Virus record (IMG/VR): IMGVR_UViG_3300036846_001441
Length of the DNA stretch: 20,000 nt
Origin: an uncultured virus (IMG/VR IMGVR_UViG_3300036846_001441)
Taxonomy: Duplodnaviria; Heunggongvirae; Uroviricota; Caudoviricetes
Direction: 5' to 3' (one strand)
Under the pieces are notes generated by a model. It searched no databases. It worked only from the letters and a program-made list of their open reading frames with translations, and was not told where the DNA came from. How positions within the stretch are numbered: the first letter of the stretch is position 1; the number at the start of each line of letters is the position of its first letter. The translations under genes were made by a program, and so were the position numbers. This document shows positions 4,212-19,696 of the stretch, one piece after another.

Positions 4212-4760
4212 ATGAAGCACCCTTGCTGGTTCGTCTACTGGCTCTACAGCGACCATGGGACGAACCCACGACTACACGGCTACGTCGGCGTCACTTGCTC
4301 TCTATTCCGCCGCATCTGGCACCACCACAATCGAGGTCTACCGGCCTTCAAAGTCAAGATCCTCCTTCGAGGAACACAAGACCAGTGCCTCGAGCTCGAA
4401 AAGCGTCTACGACCTACGCAAGACATCGGCTGGAACACGCGCGCCGGAGGTCCAACATACCAGGGCAATGGCAAGAGCCAGATCATCGACATCAGCGACA
4501 CTAGAGAGCGCGGCGCCAACAAACCAAAATCCGCAGAGACCAGAGCCAAGATGAGAGCATCAGCACTCGCTCGCTACGCCGATCCAGCTGAGCGATCCAA
4601 GACACAGAAAGCTGTGAAGAAAGCATTCGAGAACATCGACCGCTCTGGTAAAAATAACTCTCGTTTCGGCAAGCACTGCTCAGAAGAAACCAAGCAACGC
4701 ATGCGCGACACGATTGCCAAGCGTCGGCTCATCACTCCTGCTTCTGCTCGCTCAACCTGA
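4212..4760 (+). CDS. Free-standing GIY-YIG homing endonuclease with NUMOD3 DNA-binding motifs
   Basis: FVYWL...GYVGVT..LFRRIWHH...LELEKRL...GWN matches the GIY-YIG core. KSAETRAKMRAS and GKNNSRFGKHCSEETKQRMRD are NUMOD3-like. It has a good SD and is the only credible plus-strand gene. Confidence 0.85.
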   Translation: MKHPCWFVYWLYSDHGTNPRLHGYVGVTCSLFRRIWHHHNRGLPAFKVKILLRGTQDQCLELEKRLRPTQDIGWNTRAGGPTYQGNGKSQIIDISDTRERGANKPKSAETRAKMRASALARYADPAERSKTQKAVKKAFENIDRSGKNNSRFGKHCSEETKQRMRDTIAKRRLITPASARST

Positions 4761-4999: not shown

Positions 5000-6697
5000 C
5001 TAACTCCTTCTTGCCTCTCGCAGCACGTCGAACATGTACTTGATGGAGACCTGTTGACGCTGATCCATCTCAGCCTGAGTGTCCCCGGCCTTGATGCCGG
5101 TCGTTACATCAATCTCATCCAGGGTATCGGTGATATCTGGGTACCACTCGCTGCGATAGAAGCAGCTCACCTCGTATTGAAGCTCTCCGAACGGCGTCTC
5201 ATTGTTCAATCCAGCACTTCCGAACGTGTGGCGCCTCATCCCCCTAGGCAGGCTCTCAATGCCAACGCCATATGGATTGTCATTGACCAGCACATTCATC
5301 AGCTTTGGATCGGTCCACAGTAGACTCATGATCCTCTGATAGGTCGCATCAAGCTCGAGCTCCAACTCATCAAAGTCATTATTCTCCAAGATGGCAGAGA
5401 GACCAATGCGAGACGAGTGACTGAACCTGATGCACCCGGCATTGGCGTCTCCATCCGGAGTCATCTGCTCTTCGACGATGTAGACGCCAAGATATGGCAA
5501 GAGGTCTGGCTGAACCGGATTCATCTTCATCTTGCGAAGTGTAAAATCAGAAAAATATGGATCGGCCACGATCACGTTGAATATTGCGTCGCGAGCATTC
5601 AGGGTGTAGCTGCTCTGAGAGACTGAGATGACTGTGCCACTGACCACATCATCTGCAGAGGCTGCCTCCACCGACGAGACCGGATAAGACTCTGCCCATA
5701 GAGAGGAGTCAACCGCAGAGGCTGCCTCTATTGTGGTGGCGGCATAAAGCACCACACCAGTGATTGCGCCGGCACCAATTCCAGATTCAATCAGTGCAGA
5801 AGAAGATTTCGAAGAGACACCAAGTGCGTCTGACGCGACCGCATTCTCGACGACATCAGAGACGCCGGCATTAATTATCGATCCAGTTACCGCATCCGCA
5901 CTAAATCCCGACTCCGTCATCACTCCAGTGGCATGTAAGGCAACGCTGGACGCATCTGACACCGACGCGCTTTCGCTGATACCTGGTGCCCAGACATTGT
6001 TGACCGAACCCAACGCATCGGTTGCGGCGCCAGCTTCGTTAACCGCATCGTTGTATGTGTTCCCTACTCCAGTGCCAAAGTCAGATGTCGTGATTACCGC
6101 AGCAGGTTCAATATAAAACTCAATGTCAGCACTAGTGGAGGTGGATGTGGTGTTAATCGACCATTCGCATTGGACGTAAAGATATTCATTGTTGAACGCG
6201 ATTGGCGAACTTGGTGTGAAGGTAACGTCTGATTCACCAGAAGCTGTGATTGATACTGCGCCGCTGTCTGTTCCGGTTAGGACAGAGGTCGTAAGCTCGG
6301 TAAATGTACCGGCGGCAGCGTTGTTCGAAGTTGACTTCCAAATCCGGCAGCAGACGCTCCCGGTTTGACCTCCCGACGCCAGGGCAGCACGAAGACGGAA
6401 TGCAAGTGTCCATGGAGTCGCCGCAAACGTACCGGTGTAAGGATTTTCCGAACGCCACGAAGAAGAGGTGGTCAGATTAGGAGGCGTTAATGAATCAGCC
6501 GCAGTAAAACTAGCATTACCACGCCTCGAATTGATCTGCATCAGTGACGAATTAGGAGATGAAGATTTAGAAACAACCCATCCCGTTGATGTTATACCAG
6601 CAGATGGTGCACCTCCACCATCTTGCAGAGATAAGGAAGAGTTAACTAAGACATTCTTGAGATAGAAAGTTATTGCAGCCATTGACGGCTTCTTCAC
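5000..6697 (-). CDS. Fusion of a Ser/Thr-rich beta domain, about seven 20-aa repeats and a C-terminal tail-terminator-like domain
   Basis: The C-terminal ~200 aa (ARDAIFNVI...QPDLLPYLGVYIVEEQMTPDGD...) has the pattern and position of a tail terminator. The N-terminal part is lower in GC. Start is GTG 6697 or ATG 6682. Confidence 0.6.
   Translation of the reverse strand: MKKPSMAAITFYLKNVLVNSSLSLQDGGGAPSAGITSTGWVVSKSSSPNSSLMQINSRRGNASFTAADSLTPPNLTTSSSWRSENPYTGTFAATPWTLAFRLRAALASGGQTGSVCCRIWKSTSNNAAAGTFTELTTSVLTGTDSGAVSITASGESDVTFTPSSPIAFNNEYLYVQCEWSINTTSTSTSADIEFYIEPAAVITTSDFGTGVGNTYNDAVNEAGAATDALGSVNNVWAPGISESASVSDASSVALHATGVMTESGFSADAVTGSIINAGVSDVVENAVASDALGVSSKSSSALIESGIGAGAITGVVLYAATTIEAASAVDSSLWAESYPVSSVEAASADDVVSGTVISVSQSSYTLNARDAIFNVIVADPYFSDFTLRKMKMNPVQPDLLPYLGVYIVEEQMTPDGDANAGCIRFSHSSRIGLSAILENNDFDELELELDATYQRIMSLLWTDPKLMNVLVNDNPYGVGIESLPRGMRRHTFGSAGLNNETPFGELQYEVSCFYRSEWYPDITDTLDEIDVTTGIKAGDTQAEMDQRQQVSIKYMFDVLREARRS
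5630..6052 (-). repeat. About seven degenerate 20-23 aa repeats of pattern E-x-(A/G)-x-(A/S)-x-D
   Basis: EAGAATDALG, ESASVSDASS, ESGFSADAVT, ENAVASDALG, ESGIGAGAIT, EAASAVDSSL, EAASADDVVS. Confidence 0.75.
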
Positions 6698-7281
6698 ATT
6701 GAAGCAGTGTAAGACACGTTCAGCGTGTCACCATTACCAACAACCTTGTCGCCCTGAGCAAAGGTTCCAGCACTGTAAAGCACGCCCGCCGTACTGTCGA
6801 TGGTCGACACAGCACCAGAGCCAAAGACGATGAACGCCCCCTTGAACGTACCGGCCCCAGTTACGGCAAATGAGAGGGCCGCAGAGAGAGCCTTTGCCCC
6901 TCCGCTCGAGGCCGCCCATACACAGGTCTTGCGAGGCGCACTATAGGTCGGGACATTGGCCCCACCGGCCTCAGTCCACCCGGCATGCGACGTCATCGTG
7001 TCACCGGCAACTGGCCCAGCTCCATATCCAACCGATGAGATCAATCCCATAAATGGACCAACGACGGTGTAGGCCGCACCCGCCAGATATGTGTCGAGGG
7101 CGAGGTTCTTACCCACCGTGCAGACGACGTTGTCTATCTCGTCGCACCACTTGACACGACCATCTGGACCACAACACTCAAACATGAATTTTCCAACAGC
7201 CTCAGTGCCCTCATCCAGAGAGCCTCCACGAATAACTTCGGCGTCAATTGCGTGTCGTGCCTCAGCCTTTTCGACGGTCAT
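6694..7281 (-). CDS. Putative virion structural (fibre/appendage-associated) protein
   Basis: Gly/Ala/Thr-rich, predicted beta protein (NVVCTVGKNLALD...AGDTMTSHAGWTE...GDTLNVSYTAS), tightly coupled to its neighbours in the neck module. Confidence 0.6.
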   Translation of the reverse strand: MTVEKAEARHAIDAEVIRGGSLDEGTEAVGKFMFECCGPDGRVKWCDEIDNVVCTVGKNLALDTYLAGAAYTVVGPFMGLISSVGYGAGPVAGDTMTSHAGWTEAGGANVPTYSAPRKTCVWAASSGGAKALSAALSFAVTGAGTFKGAFIVFGSGAVSTIDSTAGVLYSAGTFAQGDKVVGNGDTLNVSYTASM

Positions 7282-7282
7282 G

Positions 7283-7630
7283 TCACGTGATCCTCTTCAG
7301 CTCCAGCGTAGTCTCTCCGCCACCGTTGTGGAAGACGTTGGTTATTTGAAAGTCGCCAAGGGTTGGCAGGCCAGAGATAGGTTCAGAGGGAATGTTAATC
7401 TGATCGCCCTGAACGGGAAGCACGGAGAACTCGCTGGCCCTGATGTCCAGGATGGTCTGCTGATCGGTGAGGATGCTGCCATCCTCAAGAATCATGTTGA
7501 GCATCCGACTGTCATAGATGCCCCGTCCAGTTCCACTGAAGGAATTACCGAGCATAGAGGTGAAGGTCACCGGCCTGCCAAACGTGTCCTGACAGGGCCC
7601 ATAGACCTCATCCGACATGTTTATTGCCAT
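7283..7630 (-). CDS. Head-tail joining / head closure protein (lambda FII-like)
   Basis: 115 aa with FGRPVTF, RGIYD, LPVQGDQINI and GGGETTLELK motifs, located in the neck module. Confidence 0.7.
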   Translation of the reverse strand: MAINMSDEVYGPCQDTFGRPVTFTSMLGNSFSGTGRGIYDSRMLNMILEDGSILTDQQTILDIRASEFSVLPVQGDQINIPSEPISGLPTLGDFQITNVFHNGGGETTLELKRIT

Positions 7631-7977: not shown

Positions 7978-8138
7978 CGCAGTACCAGGTATGGAGCAAC
8001 TCTCTTGACCATCCGTGAAGGAACTAGCATGACCACGCGCTTGGAGCGAGCCACCCTGGCGGCGCCATCCAGGGCGTCCCGCTTGATCTTAATGACTCTT
8101 GCCGCTCGCAAGAGGTCCATGGCCAATTTCGTCTTCAC
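7965..8138 (-). CDS. Small basic hypothetical protein (57 aa)
   Basis: A GTG at 8138 overlaps the capsid-2 stop (GTGA). The ORF fills the gap and overlaps the next start. No recognisable motif. Confidence 0.35.
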   Translation of the reverse strand: MKTKLAMDLLRAARVIKIKRDALDGAARVARSKRVVMLVPSRMVKRVAPYLVLRCWQ

Positions 8139-9205
8139 CAGTTCACCGCGGTCATGAAAGAGACGTGCGGGGCACGCATGCACCAATCAACCCACACGCT
8201 CATCTTCAGCGCTATGGCATCAACCTGGAACATGCTCTTCACGGGAGGCGATGCCAGCGTCCCAGGCGAGGAGCCTCCAACGATGTCCGATGGAGTAGTG
8301 TCCTCCTGATGAATCGTGGCCACCGTCCCAACCTCAAACTCCGGGGCACTGATGGTACAGGCAAAGCTGGGCGGCTCTATGGCTATGACAGTCTTGTCCG
8401 GTATGGCCCCACTGGAAACGACCGGAAGCGCATTGGTCGCAGGATCACCGAACTGACCACCCGCGTAGAAGCGCATGGCCACGGCCTGAGATGGACTTGA
8501 CACGAACATCGCGTGAGCTCCCCCATTGCGGGTAGCCAGATCGGCAACCAGCATGCCGAGATCGCGTCCAACGGCATCAAATCCCGAGGAGGTCGATGGA
8601 GTGAGTGGCGTGAGGCCATTGAGCAACCCGGCAGATTTTTGAGGACTGGCAGCCACCGCAGAGAAGATGGCAGCATCGATTGCCGGCCCGGCAGCCTCTG
8701 CCATGAGGGCTCTCAAGATCATCTCGATGTTGGAGGCCTCGCTCATCTCATTGGTAAACGTGGCAATGACGGTGAGCTTGTGCGGCCTCAGCGTCGGCCC
8801 AAGCAAACTGTACTGACGGGCAGGGACGACCTCCCCCTCCGCCTTCCACTGGCCTGCCCCTGCGAGGGTCGTCGATCTGCCAGGAACGACGACGCTGGCA
8901 AAGCGCCCAAGATCGATGTGAAGAGCCCCCGAGGCCATGAGCCTGCCTATCGCGGACATCGACACGACATCGAATATGGCATCGGACACACTCAAGGCGG
9001 CGAGGGGACCGGCCCACACTGAGTCCGTCGTCTTCGCTGGAAGAGAGGCACCCCGCAGGATGATTGGAGTCACCTGGTCTCCAGGATAGCGGTCATCCAA
9101 GACCTTCTCGATTGCCCTGCGCTCCACGAAGCTTCGCACCTTGGCGGCAGCAGCCCTCCACAGGTACGGCGGCAGTGGCGTCACCGGCTTGCGTTCTTCC
9201 TTCAT
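8135..9205 (-). CDS. Second HK97-fold major capsid-like protein (paralogue without protease or long scaffold segment)
   Basis: Co-linear with the C-terminal part of 12892..15711: WKAEGEVVPARQ vs FVGEGQPIPVRQ; PHKLTVIATFTNEM vs PKKMAVITTWTHEM; ATIHQEDTTPSDIV vs ATLHMEDTTPLDIV; KSMFQVDAIALK vs KSMWQTDSLALR. Confidence 0.9.
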   Translation of the reverse strand: MKEERKPVTPLPPYLWRAAAAKVRSFVERRAIEKVLDDRYPGDQVTPIILRGASLPAKTTDSVWAGPLAALSVSDAIFDVVSMSAIGRLMASGALHIDLGRFASVVVPGRSTTLAGAGQWKAEGEVVPARQYSLLGPTLRPHKLTVIATFTNEMSEASNIEMILRALMAEAAGPAIDAAIFSAVAASPQKSAGLLNGLTPLTPSTSSGFDAVGRDLGMLVADLATRNGGAHAMFVSSPSQAVAMRFYAGGQFGDPATNALPVVSSGAIPDKTVIAIEPPSFACTISAPEFEVGTVATIHQEDTTPSDIVGGSSPGTLASPPVKSMFQVDAIALKMSVWVDWCMRAPHVSFMTAVNW

Positions 9206-9854: not shown

Positions 9855-11278
9855 TGACCTCGCAGGTGACGCTCGGCCTCATACTGATCGAGCAATGGCA
9901 GCAGCGAGAACGTCGGTCCAATGGTGCCGTCACTCATCATCGCCTTCACGGTAAAGCCATCGAGCTTGACGCCGACCCAATGAGGTGCCGACTTGCCTTG
10001 ATCGCCCCTCGGCCCCTTCTCGCCGGGAAGACCCTTCTCGCCCCTCTTGCCGACTGGGCCAGACTGCCAGCCAGGCCCAGGGATGACGCCGGGATTGTCA
10101 GTCTTGGCAATGAACCATCCGTGGTCAAGGGTCACGACATCCAGGGCCGAGTAAGTCTCATCTGCAACGTGGGTGCCTCGAATCCTAAACGAAGAGCCAG
10201 CCACGCCAGCAGTCGCTATGACCCTCCACTCATCGGTGAGTCCAGGACGCTTGGCGGTATCCCTGGCGGCCTGCCAACAGCTCCCCTCCCAGGTGACGAG
10301 CTCGCCCTCGTAGAAGACGCGATCTGACCATGGGACGACGCGCGATATCACTCCGCGTGGACCTGGCTCACCTCTATCACCCTTCTCGCCCTGAGGACCT
10401 CTCCCACCCTGAGGACCAATCTGACCCATCGCGCCAATGTGACCAGGCTCGCCGCGCTCACCGCGCTCACCCATCGGACCAGGCTCACCCTTGGGGCCTT
10501 GAGCGCCAACGACGAACTGACCCTCTGGCCCAGGCTCTCCTCGCTCGCCCTTCGGACCAATCTCGCCCTGTTCACCCCGTTCACCCTGCGGCCCCTGCGC
10601 TCCAACAATAAATTGACCATCGACTCCGCGCTCGCCCTTTTCACCACGAGGACCGGGTTCGCCATTCTCGCCTGGCTCACCCTCATTGCCACGCTCGCCT
10701 GACTCACCCTTTTCTCCGCGCTCACCCTTCTCTCCGCGTTCTCCCTGAAGGCCACATTGCCCACCCGGGCCGCGCTCACCTGGAGAGCCCCTGTCTCCCT
10801 TGGCTCCCTTCTCGCCTTGCTCGCCTCGCCACCCTTGCTCGCCGCGCTCGCCCCTCTCGCCAGACTCGCCCCTCGCGCCAACGACAAACTGACCCTCTGG
10901 GCCTTGCTCGCCCTTCTCGCCGGGAGGTCCAATGTCACCCTTCTCTCCGCGCTCGCCCTGCAGTCCACGCTCGCCCTGCAGTCCGCGCTCACCCTGCAGT
11001 CCTCGATCTCCACGCTCCCCATCCCTAATCTCATCGAGGCGCTTGGCCACCTTCGAATTGACGGAGTGCTTGAGCTGAATCACATCGGCGCGAAGATTGG
11101 CCACTATCTCATCGCGTCGAGCCTGAATCACCTCCAATTCGCGCATGAACTCGCGGCGCAGCTGATCAATGATGGCGCCACCGGCATCAAGAAGCGCGTC
11201 GGAGAAGTCGTTGTCGCTCAATCTGTCTCGATCTGCTGAGCATGATCTGGGCGTACGCGTTTCGTCGTTTTGACTCAT
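9851..11278 (-). CDS. Collagen-like head-associated protein: coiled coil, Gly-X-Y repeats and Trp-rich putative carbohydrate-binding modules
   Basis: Long GER/GEK/GPQ triplet tract. C-terminal segments WSDRVFYEGELVTWEGSCWQA and TYSALDVVTLDHGWFIA resemble CBM5/12-like repeats. The true start may be TTG at 11221. Confidence 0.85.
   Translation of the reverse strand: MSQNDETRTPRSCSADRDRLSDNDFSDALLDAGGAIIDQLRREFMRELEVIQARRDEIVANLRADVIQLKHSVNSKVAKRLDEIRDGERGDRGLQGERGLQGERGLQGERGEKGDIGPPGEKGEQGPEGQFVVGARGESGERGERGEQGWRGEQGEKGAKGDRGSPGERGPGGQCGLQGERGEKGERGEKGESGERGNEGEPGENGEPGPRGEKGERGVDGQFIVGAQGPQGERGEQGEIGPKGERGEPGPEGQFVVGAQGPKGEPGPMGERGERGEPGHIGAMGQIGPQGGRGPQGEKGDRGEPGPRGVISRVVPWSDRVFYEGELVTWEGSCWQAARDTAKRPGLTDEWRVIATAGVAGSSFRIRGTHVADETYSALDVVTLDHGWFIAKTDNPGVIPGPGWQSGPVGKRGEKGLPGEKGPRGDQGKSAPHWVGVKLDGFTVKAMMSDGTIGPTFSLLPLLDQYEAERHLRGQ
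10950..11003. repeat. 3 x 18-bp tandem repeat encoding GLQGER
   Basis: cgctcgccctgcagtcca / cgctcgccctgcagtccg / cgctcaccctgcagtcct. Confidence 0.9.
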
Positions 11279-12602
11279 CTGGGGTTACCTCCGGAGGCCT
11301 CGCCGGCGGAGCAGCTGGAGGAGCTGGCGCTGGAGGTATCTTTCCTGCAGCACTCAGCGGAACGACCTGCTGCTGGACGCGAGGCTCATCCCCGAACTTG
11401 ACGCTGGGAAGGTCCTCAGAGTTTCTCGCCTCATTGGGGGCCAAGATGCCGCCCTGCACCGCCCTGGCCAAGCCATCGATGCGATCCTTGAAGGCCGATC
11501 TCAACAGGGCCTTGGTGTCGAACTCGACGTACTCATCGGGCTGCCCCTCCAGACCAAACGTCTGACCAAACGCCTCCTCAACGTGATTCAGGCAAAAGCC
11601 AAGGCCACTGCTTATCCACTGCTGCATCATGGCCTCTGCCGACCCAGCGGTGCCGGACTCCAGGCCGAGGATCGGAGGCGGCACGCGAAAGGCCATGGCA
11701 ATGTCTTGATCGGTCATCTTCAGCACCTCGGCGAGCTGAGCGTCACGAAACGGTATGTTCGGCATCGCCATGGGCTTCAAGCCAGCGGATAGGATCGGGG
11801 TGCCTCCAACATTGACCCCAGAGGTCTGCTCCGTCCACCTGTCCCTCAGCGCGCTGGCCTCGTCCTTGGTGAGCAGGAGGTCCGTCGACAACACGGTGCC
11901 TGGCTTGGCCTGATTCTGATAGAACGTGGTCTGCTGCGACCTGATCGATACTCCAGTGGAGACATCCAGATACGCGCTGACGAGGGGGCTCTCTCCGCGA
12001 AGGGGATTCCGAAGCTGGTCGACGTGAAGCTTGATGTGCATCACGTCTCTCTGAGGGACCTGAGCCAGGGCCTCGGGATAGCGATTCTGCACGATCCAGT
12101 TACCGCCGAGGGCATAGAAGACCTCGCCCTCGCCGCCAATCAGGGCTCGGCAGTAGCGGTTATCCATCAGGTGAAGCTCGACTATCTCGAAGCGATTGTT
12201 GCGAACGCAGTAGAAATATGAATTGCCCTCGAGATAGAGCTGCCTGATGGCATTGAGCATCAGGTCGGAAATCGACTGATAATCGTTGGGCTGTCGCAGT
12301 ATTCGCGACAGCGAGGAAGTGGTGACTCGCTCGCGCCCACCATTGGGCTTGCTCCTCCAGTGGTCCCCAGGGCACATTGCCACGGTCTGACTGTAGGCGC
12401 TGAGGCACGCCTCGATGATGGCAAGCTGGGAGCCTACCAACAGAGGGGTGTATCCATTCTGCCACCAGTTAACGCTCTGCCCAACGTCACCAGGCAGCCA
12501 GCCATGAGTGACAGGCAGGTAGTAAGGGCCAGGACGATACGCGCCCTCGGTCGCCTTCGAGACGACCGAGGACACGACCTTGGAGAGCCAGTCAAAAATC
12601 AT
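11187..12602 (-). CDS. Portal protein (HK97 family)
   Basis: LRQPNDYQS, LYLEGNSY, DVMHIKL, LRGESPL, IAMAFRVPPPILG, YVEFDTKALLR and GILAPNEARNSEDLP motifs. Confidence 0.95.
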   Translation of the reverse strand: MIFDWLSKVVSSVVSKATEGAYRPGPYYLPVTHGWLPGDVGQSVNWWQNGYTPLLVGSQLAIIEACLSAYSQTVAMCPGDHWRSKPNGGRERVTTSSLSRILRQPNDYQSISDLMLNAIRQLYLEGNSYFYCVRNNRFEIVELHLMDNRYCRALIGGEGEVFYALGGNWIVQNRYPEALAQVPQRDVMHIKLHVDQLRNPLRGESPLVSAYLDVSTGVSIRSQQTTFYQNQAKPGTVLSTDLLLTKDEASALRDRWTEQTSGVNVGGTPILSAGLKPMAMPNIPFRDAQLAEVLKMTDQDIAMAFRVPPPILGLESGTAGSAEAMMQQWISSGLGFCLNHVEEAFGQTFGLEGQPDEYVEFDTKALLRSAFKDRIDGLARAVQGGILAPNEARNSEDLPSVKFGDEPRVQQQVVPLSAAGKIPPAPAPPAAPPARPPEVTPDESKRRNAYAQIMLSRSRQIERQRLLRRAS

Positions 12603-12891: not shown

Positions 12892-15711
12892 TCATCCTTT
12901 CCAAACGACGCCGGTCATCCATGAGGAGACTGGGCGCCGCATGATCCAGTTCACGAACATGATCAGCCTCAGGGCCAGGCTATCAGTCTGCCACATCGAC
13001 TTGGTGGGCCATGCCGGCGTGCCGACAGTGCCAGTCCCCGAGACGATGTCCAAGGGAGTGGTGTCCTCCATATGGAGCGTGGCCTGGTCGCTGATCTCGA
13101 GGCGCGGCCCCTCCTGACCGACCGCAACAAAGTCGGCGGCATCGACCATGATCGCCGTGCCGGCAGGCACAGTCGAGGACTCGATGAGGTCGGCCTTGAG
13201 GACGCGACCAGCATCGACCATTCCCATGAAGGGATAGAGGGGAGCGGCCGCGGCGGCAGGCTGCAGCATGCTGAGGCTCAATCCCTGCTGAGGATTAACT
13301 ATCAGCGTCGGGCTCCTGACGTTGCCATTGGTCAGCGTCAAGAGCTGGCCATACAGCGCCATGTAGTCGGCCGTGAAGTTGACGTAGCCGGCACCGACTC
13401 CAGTGGCCGCGTTCGCAGTGAGCGCAGTCTGATACGACCTCAGGCCCGGAGGCCTGACCGACGTTGCCGCATTGGTGTCGAGCAGCAGGGTGTCCATGGC
13501 GATTGCCGTGTCCTCGAGGATGGCGGCCCTCAGCAGGCCCTCGATCGCCGGGGTGCTGTGCTCGTCCATCTCGTGGGTCCACGTCGTGATGACGGCCATC
13601 TTCTTCGGCACAACGGTCTGAGACGCGAACGCGCCCTGCCTCACCGGAATGGGCTGACCCTCTCCCACGAAGCTTCCCGAGATCGCCGGCGTCAGATTGC
13701 GAGTGGGGATGACAATCTTCCCTGCCGGGCCGAAGGTCAGTGACAGGCCCTTCGCCGCCAGCTTGGGATACACGCTCATGGGGTACAGGACCTCCATGAA
13801 GCTTGCCCACACGGTCTGGACGAGCTCCTGAGCCCACCCGGCGACTCCGGTCAGGGCCGGTGCGCTGGCTGCCTTGAGCACCAGGTCGCAGACTGCACGC
13901 GTCGCCTCATCGTCGCCGTATATCTTGCGGCGAGTGTCATCGATGGTGTGACCATCGGCACGCGACTTTGCCCGCACCACGGCCGCCCTGAAGAAGTAGT
14001 CCAGCGGCTCCGGCTTCTTGGCCCTCTTGAGGGTGAGGCCATCTGGGAGCCGGATAACATCCTTGCGCCGTGACAGAGCAAGATCATTTCCGGGCGGCCT
14101 CTCGGCGTCCTCGGCGGCAGAGCCGTTCTGCTTCTCGATGGCCTTGAGGTTGCCTATGTTGCGCGAGGACATCTCAATCTTGGCCGTTAAGTCCTCGGTC
14201 TTGATCATATCCTCTTCATTGGGATTGTCGTCGTCGACGTTGACGAGGTGCTTCTCGAGCTGCTCCTGCAGGGCGAGGTGCCTCTTCTCCGCCTCTTGAA
14301 TGCGTTGAGAGAGCAACATTGGTTGACCCTTTCTGTGCTCAATCTGTCTGGGTTCGGCATGCTCGCCAATTGATCTTGCAACGCGCCTCTTGTCGGCATT
14401 CTCGCCTCGCATTGCGTCGCGCCTCACGGTTGAGCTGGCATGCTCGCCAAACACCATGCTGAGCGTTGAGTTCGAAATCTTCAGGCTCTTGGCCACGGCC
14501 AACGCATTGGGATTGGCCGGCACCGCCACGAGAGAGACCTCGACGAGATCGGACTTGGTGTAGATGACGCCTCGGCTATCCTTCCGCGGCTCGTGAGAGA
14601 CCGCCTTGAAGCCGACGCTGACGGCGCGCAGGATGTCCGCCTCGACCAGCGTCCTTATCTCGTCGATTCGCTCCGAGGCCCCCTTCGGCGCCAGCTTGAG
14701 GTGACCCTGAAGCCGATTGTCGACGACCCTGATGTTCTGCCACTTGCCGACGATGAAGTCGCTCCTGTGACCGAACAGCGCGACGGGATTCTTCCTGAAG
14801 TTATCCAGCAGCCATCCATTGCTCATGATCACGTCGTCGAGGCGATCCGGCGTCTCGTCGGAGAGCACGAACTCCATTCCGTTGACCTCGGAGGAGTGAG
14901 TCTTGTGAACGATCGTCTCCGAGTCGGCAGCCCTGTTGTTCTCCCAGATCATGTCGCAGGCATCCTCGTCATCGATCGAGTCGAGGCACCTGTCCATGAA
15001 GTCGTCGTAGCTCTCGTCATCCTCGGGCTGGAGATCGTCCTGCTTGTTGCTCTCGCCATGCTCCTCTCGCCACGCGCTCATGCAAATTGCCACGGCCTGG
15101 TCCTGGGGACGCTTGTCGTCTCCGGTGCCGATCATCTCCGGCACGCAGCGAGTCATGAAGTCACTCTGACTCTCGCCCTTGCGAGGCTTCATTGGCATGG
15201 CGGCATCCTCCTTCGCCTTCCACAACTCATCATTGTCCAGCACACTCTTGAGCTTCAGCAGGGCATCGAGGACTGGGTCATCGTTTTCCATGCTCTTGTG
15301 ACCTCGAAGCGCAACCAGGGCATTGACTGCGTTCTGCATGTGGTCGCGAGCCTGAGCCATAGATATCTTCGCGCCATCGGCGAAGTGCACCACATTGTCG
15401 TGGATGGCATCGTGAACGTCCAGGGGGAAGTCGACGCCGGCAATGTGGTACAGCGAGATGGTGACCGCGGCCGCGAGCAGCTCCTTCTGGTTCTCCTTGA
15501 GCGCGTGACCGACCTTGTTGATGACCGCTCTGCCGTGCTGGTTGATGAACTGGCCGACCGGCCCCTTCATAAAGCCGCTGGGCACCTTCCCACCACCGGG
15601 CTTCGACGACCCTCCTCCGCCACCGCCGCCGGTCCACTTGCCCGACTCGTCGCGAGGCTCGTCGTCGCTGTATTTCAGTCGCACGTCAAGGGGTGGCATG
15701 GGATCAGACAA
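12892..15711 (-). CDS. Fused N-terminal accessory domain + HK97-type prohead protease + major capsid protein
   Basis: Protease motifs: FVLSDETPDRLDDVI, NPVALFGH, LRAVSVGF, LVEVSLVAVPANPNAL. These are followed by a coiled-coil segment and an HK97-fold capsid domain. The start may be ATG 15699. In-frame internal SD+ATG pairs occur at 15198 and 14319. Confidence 0.93.
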   Translation of the reverse strand: MSDPMPPLDVRLKYSDDEPRDESGKWTGGGGGGGSSKPGGGKVPSGFMKGPVGQFINQHGRAVINKVGHALKENQKELLAAAVTISLYHIAGVDFPLDVHDAIHDNVVHFADGAKISMAQARDHMQNAVNALVALRGHKSMENDDPVLDALLKLKSVLDNDELWKAKEDAAMPMKPRKGESQSDFMTRCVPEMIGTGDDKRPQDQAVAICMSAWREEHGESNKQDDLQPEDDESYDDFMDRCLDSIDDEDACDMIWENNRAADSETIVHKTHSSEVNGMEFVLSDETPDRLDDVIMSNGWLLDNFRKNPVALFGHRSDFIVGKWQNIRVVDNRLQGHLKLAPKGASERIDEIRTLVEADILRAVSVGFKAVSHEPRKDSRGVIYTKSDLVEVSLVAVPANPNALAVAKSLKISNSTLSMVFGEHASSTVRRDAMRGENADKRRVARSIGEHAEPRQIEHRKGQPMLLSQRIQEAEKRHLALQEQLEKHLVNVDDDNPNEEDMIKTEDLTAKIEMSSRNIGNLKAIEKQNGSAAEDAERPPGNDLALSRRKDVIRLPDGLTLKRAKKPEPLDYFFRAAVVRAKSRADGHTIDDTRRKIYGDDEATRAVCDLVLKAASAPALTGVAGWAQELVQTVWASFMEVLYPMSVYPKLAAKGLSLTFGPAGKIVIPTRNLTPAISGSFVGEGQPIPVRQGAFASQTVVPKKMAVITTWTHEMDEHSTPAIEGLLRAAILEDTAIAMDTLLLDTNAATSVRPPGLRSYQTALTANAATGVGAGYVNFTADYMALYGQLLTLTNGNVRSPTLIVNPQQGLSLSMLQPAAAAAPLYPFMGMVDAGRVLKADLIESSTVPAGTAIMVDAADFVAVGQEGPRLEISDQATLHMEDTTPLDIVSGTGTVGTPAWPTKSMWQTDSLALRLIMFVNWIMRRPVSSWMTGVVWKG

Positions 15712-16687
15712 ATTCCCAATCCACGACGCCCTTCCCCTCGATCCCGATCCTGGCCGCCAAGGCTGGGGAGAGATCTATGCCGGCAGGATTGCTGGGCACC
15801 TTGCCCTCATGGGGCCCGCTGGGGAGGGGCTCGTCGGAGTAGAAGCACTGCTCAGCGATGGGCCTGGCATCCCTGTAGAAGTAGTCGTCATCAGTCATCC
15901 ACGGGCCGACGTCCAATATATCGGCCACCTCCGACTCTTCAGTATCGCGATTATAAACCCTGACCCGCGGACGATCGCCCTGGAAGCGATACGGCAGCGC
16001 CACGTACATGCTCTCGTCGTCGAGCACCAGATCGGGGTCGTACGCCGACGTGTTGTAGTCGGCCTCTCCGCCAAACACAGTGGCGGTGATTGCGGCGCGG
16101 CAATCAGGAATGCCGACGGGGCGAATATCGCTCCCCTCTAATCTGTCATCGCCGAGAAGCTCATCGGCCAACGCCCCGGCAATGGCATCACAGATCAGGC
16201 GAAAATTCTCCCTGTACAGTGAGCAATCAGCGCCGCTGTCGACGAAGCACGTCTCGATCAAGATGGCCGGCTTCTCGGTGTTGTTCAGGAAGTAGAGGTC
16301 AGAACGATGCTTGGCACCGCGATCGATGAAGCCACCGGCAACGGCGATGGCGTCGCTGACGTCCTCCGCCAGGGTGCCATCCGTCACGTAGAGGACCTCC
16401 GTCCCCATTGGATTGCTGGTCGCCTCGTAGGCATTGAAGTGGACCGAGACGTCGATGTCCCGCTCGCACTCGTTGTGGAACGAGACGATGGCCTCGAGGT
16501 TCTCGCTCTGGGTATCAGATATGTCGTCGTGATAGGTAATGGCGCTGACGCCATCACGCATCAATAGCCTGGCAACCTCGTCGACTACGCGTCTCGCCTC
16601 GTTGACCTCATCGAGGCCCCACGGTGGCGGCCCAGAGGCTCCCCTGACCTTGAGGGAGTGACCAGAGGAGATGACCACGCCAGGCAT
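15704..16687 (-). CDS. Endolysin: N-acetylmuramoyl-L-alanine amidase (Amidase_3) plus a C-terminal RlpA-like double-psi beta-barrel domain
   Basis: Zn-amidase motifs ISSGH, LDE, VSVHFNA and PAILIETCFVD. The C-terminal domain has ATVFGG...YVALP...ILDVGPW...GIDLSPALA. SD GGAGG at 16698-16694. Confidence 0.88.
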   Translation of the reverse strand: MPGVVISSGHSLKVRGASGPPPWGLDEVNEARRVVDEVARLLMRDGVSAITYHDDISDTQSENLEAIVSFHNECERDIDVSVHFNAYEATSNPMGTEVLYVTDGTLAEDVSDAIAVAGGFIDRGAKHRSDLYFLNNTEKPAILIETCFVDSGADCSLYRENFRLICDAIAGALADELLGDDRLEGSDIRPVGIPDCRAAITATVFGGEADYNTSAYDPDLVLDDESMYVALPYRFQGDRPRVRVYNRDTEESEVADILDVGPWMTDDDYFYRDARPIAEQCFYSDEPLPSGPHEGKVPSNPAGIDLSPALAARIGIEGKGVVDWEFV

Positions 16688-16970: not shown

Positions 16971-17195
16971 TCAGCAGGCGACTCCTTCGGCTCTGGTTGC
17001 AGCCTTTACAGCCCACATTGCGGCGTCCTCAAAGTATGTCATCGCGAAGGACCACAGACGGCCAACCTCAGGGTCGCTGGTCTCAATAGTCCCTTCGTGA
17101 CACATGTCAATCAAGACCGCAGCCATACGCTTAATCTCATTAACCTTCCTGTTGTTTCCAAATATGATCCCCACACGATATTCACCTAGTGTCAT
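16971..17195 (-). CDS. Small helical-hairpin protein resembling Acb2/Tad1-type nucleotide-signal sponges
   Basis: MTLGEYRVGIIFGNNRKVNEIKRMAAVLIDMC...EVGRLWSFAMTYFEDAAMWAVKAAT. SD GGAG upstream of ATG 17195. An alternative ATG at 17216 overlaps the terL stop. Confidence 0.65.
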   Translation of the reverse strand: MTLGEYRVGIIFGNNRKVNEIKRMAAVLIDMCHEGTIETSDPEVGRLWSFAMTYFEDAAMWAVKAATRAEGVAC

Positions 17196-17212
17196 TATCC
17201 TACTCCATTGAC

Positions 17213-18814
17213 TCATGCGATCATGGCAGAGATGTCCAGCGCCTTCGGCCGCTCCTTGACCATCCCCGCGGACAGGGCCATGGCCATGGCGACCAGTGCG
17301 TCGATCCTGCTCCTGTACTTGGACTGACTCTTGTCGAACTTCCTGCCTCCGGCGTGGTCCTTGACGATGACTGCGTTGTTGGCGCACCACGTCAGCACGG
17401 GATTGTTGCCGTGACGAATCTTGCCCTGAACGATTAACCGCTCAATGGCATCGACGGCGGGAGACATGTCCTTGAATCCCATGCCATGCTCGACCAGGGG
17501 GACGCTGCAGCCAATCGCCTCCATCTCTCGCTTCACCTCCGCCATCCTCCACCTGTCGAACGCCAGGCCCTTGATTGGAGTGATGGAGTTGATCCTGGCT
17601 ATCTCGGCGGCAACCGCCCTGGGATCTGTGGCTATGCCAGACGCGACGATGATGCCCTGCTTCTCCCAGACGTCGTAGGGGACGCCGTCCTCATCGCTTC
17701 GCTCCTTCAGGTTGCCGGGCACCCACACCGTGGGATGAACATGCCACTCGCCGCTCCTCTCATCGTGCCTGGCCGTGACGATGGCCGTGAGGTCTCGCGT
17801 GCTGCCCAGGTCAAGGCCCGCCCACACGGCAGAGCCTGGAGGAATGATTGCATCGCCCCCGCACGCCTTCCACGCCGTTGGCTCCATGAACCTCGACTCC
17901 GAGGCCACTCGCTGGTTCAGGATCAGGTTGCGAAACGCATTCTCCTTCGTCGGCATCCGCTTGGCCTGATCGGCCAGCCGCCTGACGTCCTCCAGGCTCC
18001 TGAAGTCATTCAGCGCTGGATTGGCTGCCTTCCACGCCGTTATCAGCCACGGGTCGGCATCCTCCGGCGCGGCGTAGAGCGTAAGGTGAAATGCCGGGTC
18101 AATGATCTCCTTGGAATTGACCTTGATGCCGTAGTCGATGAGGTGAGAGAGCGGGGCATAGCTATCGGCCGCCTGGGTGGAGATGATGAGCATCAGCGGC
18201 TCCCTCCTCGCACCCATGGCGCTGTCCATGGCGTCGTACAGCTCCCTGTTCAGGGCCTGACCATACTCGTCGTACACCACGAAGCTGGGCGACAGCCCCA
18301 TCTTGGTCTTCGCCTCGCTGGTGAGGGTGTGATAGATCGTGCCGTTGTGGAGGTCCTCCATGCTCTTGGTGAACTTCGATATGTTTATTCGCGCCGCCAG
18401 CCAGGGATGGCGCAGCACGATGGCCTCCATCTCGTTGAATATCTTTCCGGCCTGGAACCTGTCGTTGGCACAGGCGTAGACCTCACCCCTCGGCTCGGCC
18501 TCTGGGCCGGAGAGGTGACACAGCGCCATGGCGGCGGCGAGCTGGGTCTTGCCGTTCTTCCTGGCCATCGACAGGATCGCGGTGCGAACCGGGCGAATGC
18601 CCCTATTGTCCTCCCTGTAGACCGCCTTGATGAACCGCTTCTGAAAGGGCCTCAGCACCAGCTTCTTACCGGCCTCGGCGCCGGACGTGACGTAGAGGTC
18701 CTCGCAGAACGCCATCACTCGCTCGTCCCGCTCGAGGTCGAAATTGTCCCACGGGACCGGCATCTCAGGCGGCGGCTTCTGCTTGGGTCTTGCTCCTATC
18801 CCTCTGCGACCCAT
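17213..18814 (-). CDS. terL: Terminase large subunit (HK97-like, Terminase_1 type)
   Basis: LRPFQ, Walker A MARKNGKT, Walker B VVYDE, IISTQ coupling motif, WKAANPAL, and nuclease motifs AGLDLG, FDRW and RIDALVAMAMA. Confidence 0.97.
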   Translation of the reverse strand: MGRRGIGARPKQKPPPEMPVPWDNFDLERDERVMAFCEDLYVTSGAEAGKKLVLRPFQKRFIKAVYREDNRGIRPVRTAILSMARKNGKTQLAAAMALCHLSGPEAEPRGEVYACANDRFQAGKIFNEMEAIVLRHPWLAARINISKFTKSMEDLHNGTIYHTLTSEAKTKMGLSPSFVVYDEYGQALNRELYDAMDSAMGARREPLMLIISTQAADSYAPLSHLIDYGIKVNSKEIIDPAFHLTLYAAPEDADPWLITAWKAANPALNDFRSLEDVRRLADQAKRMPTKENAFRNLILNQRVASESRFMEPTAWKACGGDAIIPPGSAVWAGLDLGSTRDLTAIVTARHDERSGEWHVHPTVWVPGNLKERSDEDGVPYDVWEKQGIIVASGIATDPRAVAAEIARINSITPIKGLAFDRWRMAEVKREMEAIGCSVPLVEHGMGFKDMSPAVDAIERLIVQGKIRHGNNPVLTWCANNAVIVKDHAGGRKFDKSQSKYRSRIDALVAMAMALSAGMVKERPKALDISAMIA

Positions 18815-19102: not shown

Positions 19103-19696
19103 TTACCTCTGCGATGGAGTCGGAGCGGGCACGTTCGGAATGCCCACGATGACCCATCCAGTTCTCAGCGACCATCCCGCGTGCCAGTCGATGATCCTCG
19201 GCGGCTCTGCCGGTAGGATCGGATCGCCCCAAATCTGAGGAGGAGGCACGCCACCCCAGAATCCATCCGGCGGCACACCGGGCGGGAGAACGGGCTCGTG
19301 CCAGATGCCGGGCGGAGGCTTCTCAGTCCCAGGCGGCAGCACGATCGGAGGCGTCGGGAAGGGCTCATTGCCTCCGCCCCAAATGCCGGGAGGCTGACCA
19401 CCAGGGGCGATGGGATGAGCAGGGTGACCAGGAGAGGGCCAGATGCCGGGAGGCTGACCACCAGGGGCAATGGGATGAGCCGGATGCCCTGGCGAGGGCC
19501 AGATGCCGGGGGGAGGGCCACCTGGAGGCGAGGGCCAGATGCCAGGAGGAGGGCCACCCGGCGCAATGGGGTGAGCTGGCCAACCCGGAACGCCAAAGCC
19601 AGGATCAACCGGCGAAGGAGGATACACGGGGCCTCCGCCCACGCTCAGCGTGGGGTCATACAGCTCCCCGATGAAGACGACTTGCCTGCCAGTCAT
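19103..19696 (-). CDS. Pro/Gly/Trp-rich repeat protein of unknown function
   Basis: SD AAAGGA. Repeats of PPGIWPSPGHPAHPIAPGG, with a non-repetitive beta-like N-terminus and a Trp-rich C-terminus. Confidence 0.8.
   Translation of the reverse strand: MTGRQVVFIGELYDPTLSVGGGPVYPPSPVDPGFGVPGWPAHPIAPGGPPPGIWPSPPGGPPPGIWPSPGHPAHPIAPGGQPPGIWPSPGHPAHPIAPGGQPPGIWGGGNEPFPTPPIVLPPGTEKPPPGIWHEPVLPPGVPPDGFWGGVPPPQIWGDPILPAEPPRIIDWHAGWSLRTGWVIVGIPNVPAPTPSQR
19379..19585. repeat. Degenerate 60-bp tandem repeat with partial copies inside the Pro-rich gene
   Basis: 19381-19440 and 19441-19500 align at period 60 with mostly synonymous differences. Partial copies continue to about 19585. Confidence 0.9.

Follow-up and report, generated by a model that had tools for sequence, protein, structure and literature searches.

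Conserved in-frame starts inside a cargo-bearing protease-scaffold-capsid fusion gene of a probable alphaproteobacterial phage

Background

When the prohead protease, the scaffold and the major capsid protein of a phage are encoded in a single reading frame, the annotation of that frame as one protein leaves open how several hundred capsid subunits can arise together with few proteases. The question is raised by a stretch of 20,000 nucleotides from an uncultured member of the Caudoviricetes (IMG/VR record IMGVR_UViG_3300036846_001441), referred to below as the window, in which a stop-free open reading frame (ORF) on the minus strand, 15711-12892, encodes 939 amino acids (aa). An initial annotation, made from the letters of this DNA, proposed that the ORF gives rise to three co-terminal products by means of nested in-frame starts. 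The motifs on which that proposal was built are indeed there: the Shine-Dalgarno (SD) sequence AAGGAGG (15213-15207, -) stands 8 nt ahead of the ATG at 15198 (codon M172), and GAAAGGG (14333-14327, -) stands 7 nt ahead of the ATG at 14319 (M465). From a comparison of the gene with its homologs we arrive at one mRNA with three in-frame starts, combined with the tethering and release of protease and cargo, as the best overall explanation, to which we assign a probability of roughly 0.6.

In gene content the window corresponds to the head and tail part of a contractile-tailed phage genome, with genes for the terminase, an amidase, the capsid fusion ORF, a small gene, the portal, a collagen-like protein, the connector, the sheath and the tube. 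Because the named hosts of relatives are mostly Bradyrhizobium, Sphingomonas and other Alphaproteobacteria, the ORF probably stems from an alphaproteobacterial phage.

Results and discussion

A family-wide fusion of protease, scaffold and capsid

Judged by its profile matches, the gene is an HK97-type protease-scaffold-capsid fusion of the phrog_617 family, with which it aligns in one piece over residues 259-929 (E 1.3e-66); the TIGR01554 match falls just below the cut-off, and the NCBIfam model NF045541 (scaf_prot_MCP2) matches the protease part only, with 36.1 bits, and does not reach its curated cut-off of 525 bits. A homolog search matched 1146 proteins, of which the best 120 were used for start positions, and in most of these 120 the equivalent of M172, i.e. 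the annotated start in most relatives, is the first residue. From 125 loci with a match we took the 112 with an ORF of at least 400 aa spanning the junction, leaving out L113 as distant; at <85% identity these yield 94 non-redundant genes. The loci are related, so that the counts given below are not independent.

None of the 112 loci has a stop between the protease and M465. The frame stays open through the full capsid in 105 of them, and of the other seven, five end at contig edges; L031 has a stop beside the contig start and L109 a break inside the capsid. The same fusion is found, at 24% identity, in Pseudomonas phage PAJU2 and the E. coli prophage PPompW. The join between protease and capsid is family-wide and therefore not the product of a recent stop loss, which the initial annotation had kept as its alternative.

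A conserved start ahead of scaffold and capsid

The ATG of M465 (14317..14319, -), which specifies the first residue of scaffold and capsid, is preceded by the SD AGAAAGGG (14327..14334, -), which is complementary to the CCUUUCU that ends the 16S gene of Alphaproteobacteria. All 112 loci have an ATG within 10 codons ahead of a conserved arginine. Upstream of it, GAAAG is present in 61 of the 94 non-redundant genes, against 8.0 expected under synonymous recoding that follows the codon usage of each gene, and in 48 genes it is located at exactly -14. At this site the arginine or glycine ahead of lysine is encoded by GGA, AGA or CGA in 50 of 60 cases; elsewhere, 23 of 392 such pairs read xGA-AAG. 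These rare codons spell an SD, for which a cleavage site would have no need.

In two Bradyrhizobium genomes and one of Sphingomonas, the 16S gene terminates in CCTCCTTTCT, a sequence that can pair with AGAAAGG. With this longer 16S tail, anti-SD pairing at M465 amounts to -8.18 kcal/mol versus -5.19 expected and exceeds expectation in 92/94 genes, while the pairing of 1440 other internal ATGs is -2.36 kcal/mol; among internal ATGs the M465 site ranks first in 61/94 and second in 17/94 genes. A GGAG or GAGG form occupies the site in 18/94 genes, the GAAAGG-type motif is displaced by one base in 8, and local folding is weaker here (-8.9 vs -11.3). PAJU2 carries AGGAGG ahead of its M197, PPompW AAGGA ahead of its M193. 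Within the window alone the M465 SD is not significant against synonymous recoding (p 0.18-0.67), and neither is that of M172 (p 0.27), so the significance comes from the family. Taken at the family level, the comparison indicates that selection at the DNA level keeps the SD at M465, and it is very probable that the start is used.

The ancestral start and the probable long form

M172 (ATG 15196..15198, -; SD 15207..15213, within the last cargo codons) is the ordinary start in the family, with a mean SD strength of -9.1 (n=51), and in the window its SD is the strongest among all in-frame ATGs (-12.5). SD and ATG are retained at this position in 16/16 loci in which the gene is extended at its 5' end by a fused cargo (mean -8.5, vs -8.9 in 46 unfused loci), and in 15 of these 16 the SD lies above synonymous expectation (p 0.002). 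M172 is the ancestral gene start, and its use is, if anything, slightly more probable than that of M465.

For the long form the likelier first start is the ATG of M5 (15697..15699, -; 935 aa), at which the ESM Atlas record likewise begins, and not codon 1, the alternative TTG at 15711. It lies 4 nt past the TGA (15706-15704) of the upstream gene for an N-acetylmuramoyl-L-alanine amidase (15704..16687, -; Pfam Amidase_3, E 1.4e-22), to which it is probably coupled translationally, and it has a weak SD (-3.8 kcal/mol) and a high opening energy. Across the family the long-form SD is weaker than that of M172 in 12 of 14 loci (-4.2 vs -8.7) and often stands beside an upstream stop, and it therefore fits a minor product. 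The proposal of three co-terminal products thus gains family-level DNA evidence for three nested starts and a minor cargo-bearing form, with its first start moved to M5. Prediction of internal promoters and terminators in the ORF gave 2 and 2 sites, which equals chance expectation.

Module anatomy

Both internal starts fall at domain edges, as had been proposed: the 5' module ends just before M172, and the coiled-coil helices begin at residue 467. The partition into accessory, protease and scaffold-capsid parts needs one correction, since M172 opens not the protease proper but a two-repeat, cysteine-rich/acidic helical module of ~95 aa (residues 172-265; 14917..15198, -). Look-alikes of this module occur alone or on prohead proteases, which we note as a lead only. 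The HK97-type (S78) prohead protease follows (residues ~272-426; 14434..14898, -; Pfam S78, PF04586, at 308-409); its His315 and Ser365 are invariant in 30 sequences and are presumably catalytic, by analogy with HK97 gp4. The linker 426-464 (14320..14436, -), which holds the SD of the third start, is modelled as disordered in a full-length structure model that is weak overall (pTM 0.34) and served only for the linker/helix boundary. Next come a scaffold/delta-like region (465-613; 13873..14319, -), composed of a coiled coil (467-536) and a helical part and ending at Lys613, and the HK97-fold major capsid domain (614-939; 12892..13872, -), assigned by phrog_617, TIGR01554 and profile matches to the capsid proteins of PDB 8gta and 9d9w. 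The R4C paper on PDB 8GTA makes no mention of a protease.

A variable cargo at the 5' end

An in-frame extension of 74-1156 codons precedes M172 in the 16 fused loci. In the window it consists of a tag (residues 14-27, right after Lys13; 15631..15672, -) with an aromatic-acidic part, PRD and G.W, then a Gly-rich linker, and a six-helix cargo domain (residues ~51-170; 15199..15561, -). The PRD..G.W tag recurs in 13/16 fused loci, the other three being assigned by eye. Among the cargoes are DUF7178, a zincin-like domain (weak ATLF match) and ParB-like domains (by eye), while the helical cargo of the window is fused in L119, L121, L123, L125 and L131 as well. It has no Pfam, PHROG or NCBIfam match, and its model (pLDDT 74.5) has no Foldseek match at E<=0.001 and no usable Atlas match. 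The best VIA rows (BopN, Z 10.9; a stressosome globin-like domain, Z 9.5) lie in a range common for helical bundles and are not distinctive, and we do not claim a likeness to either.

Several observations bear on how this tier is maintained. Where a tagged cargo ORF borders directly on the protease start, it is in frame and stop-free (13/13 cases), unfused tagged genes end at least 207 nt from the protease start (with a small ORF between in the 9 examined), and in 30 unfused loci the nearest upstream ORFs are spread over the three frames and have stops (7/8/15, some being shadow ORFs). Seven different junction lengths occur in 9 proteins. Change in the cargo is third-position-dominated in 11/11 comparisons, which indicates that the cargo is under purifying selection. 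In a capsid tree (FastTree, midpoint-rooted, without clade test, and with L065 labelled unfused though its contig ends 6 codons upstream), 14 fused of 89 tips stand in about seven places, with 9 parsimony changes versus 13.3 for shuffled labels; the window is the sole fused tip in its own clade. The cargo of the window is 61% identical to that of L119 while the protease-capsid parts are only 48% identical, which suggests that modules are exchanged.

The helical domain is also found outside the fusion, namely as a stand-alone gene between terminase and amidase in L120, similarly in L124, L130 and L133, at the end of MuF proteins (L122, L126-128), which also have ART and papain-like domains, and at the end of a portal (L129). 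A protein search for stand-alone homologs (91-293 aa) returned 69 candidates, none at E<=0.001; alignment-based DNA scans then found some. Since the domain rides on MuF and portal proteins, a head-packaged, injected protein is the likeliest role of the cargo, by analogy with the systems treated in PMC5512222 and PMC9503650.

As to its placement, the stand-alone gene of L120 lies upstream of a similar-looking amidase gene (6603-7574), and the cargo of the window downstream of its amidase. Longer fusions exist as well, of 1938 (L073:775-6588) and 1682 open codons (L061:2289-7334), in which the protease-capsid part is preceded by several tagged modules, and Bradyrhizobium prophages (L008, L019, L080, L081) have stand-alone tagged proteins of ~1100 aa at ~1-3.6 kb upstream of the protease start, with DUF7178 in L080.

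Putative sites for proteolytic release

The HK97 protease cleaves after lysine. In the present family, lysine or arginine occupies position -1 or -2 of the tag in 47/51 instances (24% would be expected; the count contains at least 2 duplicates), which suggests release of the cargo by the protease, and it stands right before the capsid N-arm in 73 of the 74 genes having that pattern. The protease would thus free the cargo, itself and the scaffold inside the prohead.

Proposed mechanism and its alternatives

In the mechanism that we propose, a single late mRNA would be translated from three in-frame starts, of which M465 would give scaffold-capsid, M172 protease-scaffold-capsid, and the weak, probably amidase-coupled ATG at 15699 a minor cargo-protease-scaffold-capsid form. 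Given their common capsid-domain end, the products could co-assemble and thereby tether protease and cargo inside the prohead, after which the protease would cut after lysine or arginine at the module edges, i.e. before the tag and at the capsid N-arm, and so release the modules. Initiation, product ratios, co-assembly, cleavage and the retention and ejection of the cargo are steps that we infer. That the long form is made and packaged seems, from the sequence comparison, rather probable. More tentatively, the tag after lysine or arginine could be a portable signal for head loading and protease release, and the 5' end of the gene a slot for exchangeable cargo: phages infecting Alphaproteobacteria in soil would splice anti-host or anti-defense modules (ParB-like, zincin-like, DUF7178, the helical domain) onto their major capsid protein, with the dose set by a weak coupled start and with the two inner starts keeping assembly unharmed.

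A number of findings weigh against the mechanism. With a shorter anti-SD the excess at M465 is smaller (-5.47 vs -4.39, 60/94), and the longer 16S tail was adopted after the shorter one, from the 16S genes of three host-like genomes and not from mature rRNA; the accessible part of PMC5711450 does not print the tail. In the window M465 (-9.2) is surpassed by M645 (-10.5) and equalled by GTG43 and TTG887, and no single M172 site is significant by itself (best p 0.11). Nor do the calculations single out a dominant product: predicted SD strength and opening energy do not differ between M172 and M465, with M465 favored in 24/49 loci, M172 looks the stronger of the two in the window, and codon bias is nearly the same, GC3 being 0.737 in the protease and 0.753 in the capsid (difference 0.016). 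The expectation of the initial annotation that capsid-only protein dominates finds no support in this form, in that a ribosome-binding-site calculation gives M465 no advantage over M172 and the product of M465 is scaffold plus capsid; it is stoichiometric logic, unlike the calculations, that favors the M465 product. As regards the cargo tier, the junction lengths were taken from protein records, in which the frame is kept by construction, the cargo search contributed 6 of the 16 fused loci, the fusion is dispensable since stand-alone tagged cargo genes exist, and a module of ~70 aa that is fused in L027 and L037 is free in L008, L022, L024 and L029.

These points on the cargo tier touch on a rival explanation, which we consider somewhat unlikely, in which only the starts at M172 and M465 are real: the cargo would have become fused by repeated tolerated stop loss or be barely translated, the long form would be incidental, and packaging, if any, would proceed via the tag alone. 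It would account for the fusion being present in a minority (9/94 among loci from unbiased capsid-based scans) and lacking in the closest relatives (P0003/P0005, 68-70% identical; L002, L003), for the free cargo versions in L120 and L130, for the weak long-form start, and for the junk-like junctions in L071, L073, L077 and L125, which are long in L071 and L077, where moreover no ATG precedes the first tag. Two unfused neighbors fit it too, both out of frame: a 71-aa gene with a degenerate tag that ends 7 nt before the start in L040, and an ART-like gene (by eye) with a different tag that ends 80 nt before the start in L043. (The latter gene, L043:4255-4923, bears a two-cysteine N-terminal motif.) Against this stand the frame and openness of all 13 abutting tagged genes, compared with the scattered frames and stops upstream of the unfused loci, the conservation of the cargo at the protein level, the recurrence of fusions over the capsid tree and the fact that translation, once in the cargo, runs on through the capsid without a stop. 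This makes a series of tolerated stop losses a weaker explanation for the cargo tier. Alternatively, a single polyprotein from M172 or M5 might cleave itself, the SD and ATG at M465 being a relic of an ancestral gene fusion. Such genes are described as single products (PMC8508860 section 2.5), lysine or arginine sites lie at module edges and M465 has no predicted advantage, but a relic would hardly hold rare SD-spelling codons at an unchanged distance in genes of 40-70% identity, alternate between the GAAAGG form and GGAG/GAGG, or reappear in PAJU2 and PPompW, which are 24% identical, so we regard this account as improbable.

The conserved xGA-AAG before M465 might, rather than an SD, be a -1 frameshift site that ends the protease early, like the CGA AAG frameshift site of B. 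subtilis cdd. An in-frame xGA AAG is present in 48/94 genes, yet the distance to the stop in the -1 frame ranges from 2 to 268 codons (median 29 versus 35 in the control), the motif is displaced by one base in some genes and replaced by GGAG/GAGG in others, and the ATG is invariant at SD spacing; with no conserved stop following, we reject this very improbable reading. Least of all do we expect an assembly or sequencing artefact or a very recent stop loss in this genome, the chance of which we deem negligible: the window is an uncultured soil contig, possibly derived from run X1, but contigs from other studies span the junctions (that from run X2 the M172 junction, that from run X4, with 58 differences, both), the 98% identical P0002 is a single uninterrupted protein of 932 aa, and the same cargo is fused in the five loci named above. 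The initial annotation had proposed a check for stops near 15200-15220 and 14320-14340 in reads and homologous loci, and P0002 is interrupted in neither place. Among the differences listed (a further 197 substitutions and 9 indels lie beyond them), none of the 14 decoded substitutions creates a stop, and the indels within the ORF are two, of 3 and 15 nt. The mechanism with three starts, tethering and release is thus the reading that we prefer.

Relation to known systems

The head genes of PAJU2 (ORF003), PPompW and Stx phages (phrog_617) resemble that of the window in that a single frame encodes protease, scaffold and HK97-fold capsid, followed downstream by one or more small genes and then the portal (in the window 11187..12602, -, behind the capsid gene and one small gene, the same order as in PAJU2). 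These fusions are annotated or described as one product, whereas the family studied here has a selected inner SD and ATG and, in some members, an additional N-terminal cargo of 70-1150 aa. An analogue of the protease-capsid fusion with a ClpP-type protease is reportedly present in Gifsy-2, and genes I and Z of phage Mu are nested in-frame protease/scaffold genes. Another ClpP-type analogue, MD8 gp5, is a tripartite head gene described as a single product in PMC8508860. Nested in-frame protease/scaffold genes are further represented by lambda C/Nu3, HSV-1 and HFTV1 gp17/gp17.5 (bioRxiv 10.64898/2026.09.13.751334). What the window gene shares with them is an in-frame ATG placed behind the protease domain, from which a co-terminal product opening with the scaffold would be made. 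In the lambda C/Nu3 type, however, there are two products and the capsid is a separate gene, whereas in the window the predicted inner product runs into the capsid and a third, longer tier is probably added; the window gene works like C/Nu3 yet is not a member of that type.

With regard to the cargo, phage-type polyvalent proteins, and effectors attached to MuF, to the portal or to the capsid-processing peptidase (PMC5512222, PMC9503650), are likewise variable modules in the terminase-portal-capsid cluster that are fused to head proteins, but in the window it is the major capsid protein that carries the module, and the inner starts are retained; neither tag nor nested starts are mentioned in the accessible parts of the two papers. 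The internal proteins of T4, diverse cargo that has only a short conserved N-terminal capsid targeting sequence in common (PMC3012670), resemble the tagged cargo in this arrangement, with no similarity of sequence seen between the two, and are separate from the T4 capsid protein. The literature searched, which lacked most subscription papers and the supplements, gave no description of an inner start in a protease-capsid fusion or of cargo joined to such a gene, and the supplements of PMC5512222 may list the tag or the architecture. Each element has its precedent.

Other genes in the window

The amidase (15704-16687, -) has an additional C-terminal part and lies inside the head cluster. A second capsid-like gene (8135-9205, -; 356 aa), 31% identical to polyprotein residues ~561-937 and without protease or coiled-coil scaffold, possibly encodes a minor or vertex capsid protein; a similar paralog is present near 24/94 non-redundant loci, up- or downstream. 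Directly after the terminase, the ORF 16971-17390 (-), whose start is probably later than listed, matches the Acb2/Tad1 hairpin domain over residues 81-133 (E 1.6e-10) and is a candidate anti-defense sponge. On the opposite strand, amid the tail genes, a NUMOD3-bearing ORF (4212-4760, +) probably encodes a homing endonuclease. The Pro/Gly-rich ORF 19103-19696 (-), with about six 15-aa repeats of the HPIAPGG.PPGIWPSP type, has no family match, and the 565-aa ORF 5000-6697 (-), which by eye seems to combine a Ser/Thr/Ala-rich N-terminal with a tail-completion-like C-terminal part, has no Pfam or PHROG match.

Conclusions

The conserved inner start offers an answer to the question of how many capsid subunits and few proteases may come from one gene. 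Through the proposed third tier, phages could load variable effectors into their heads in a simple way, and prophages of the family are at hand in cultured Bradyrhizobium lysogens (L008, L079-L082). The tag provides a sequence handle for finding head-packaged proteins whose function is unknown, and possibly for the loading of phage capsids in the laboratory.

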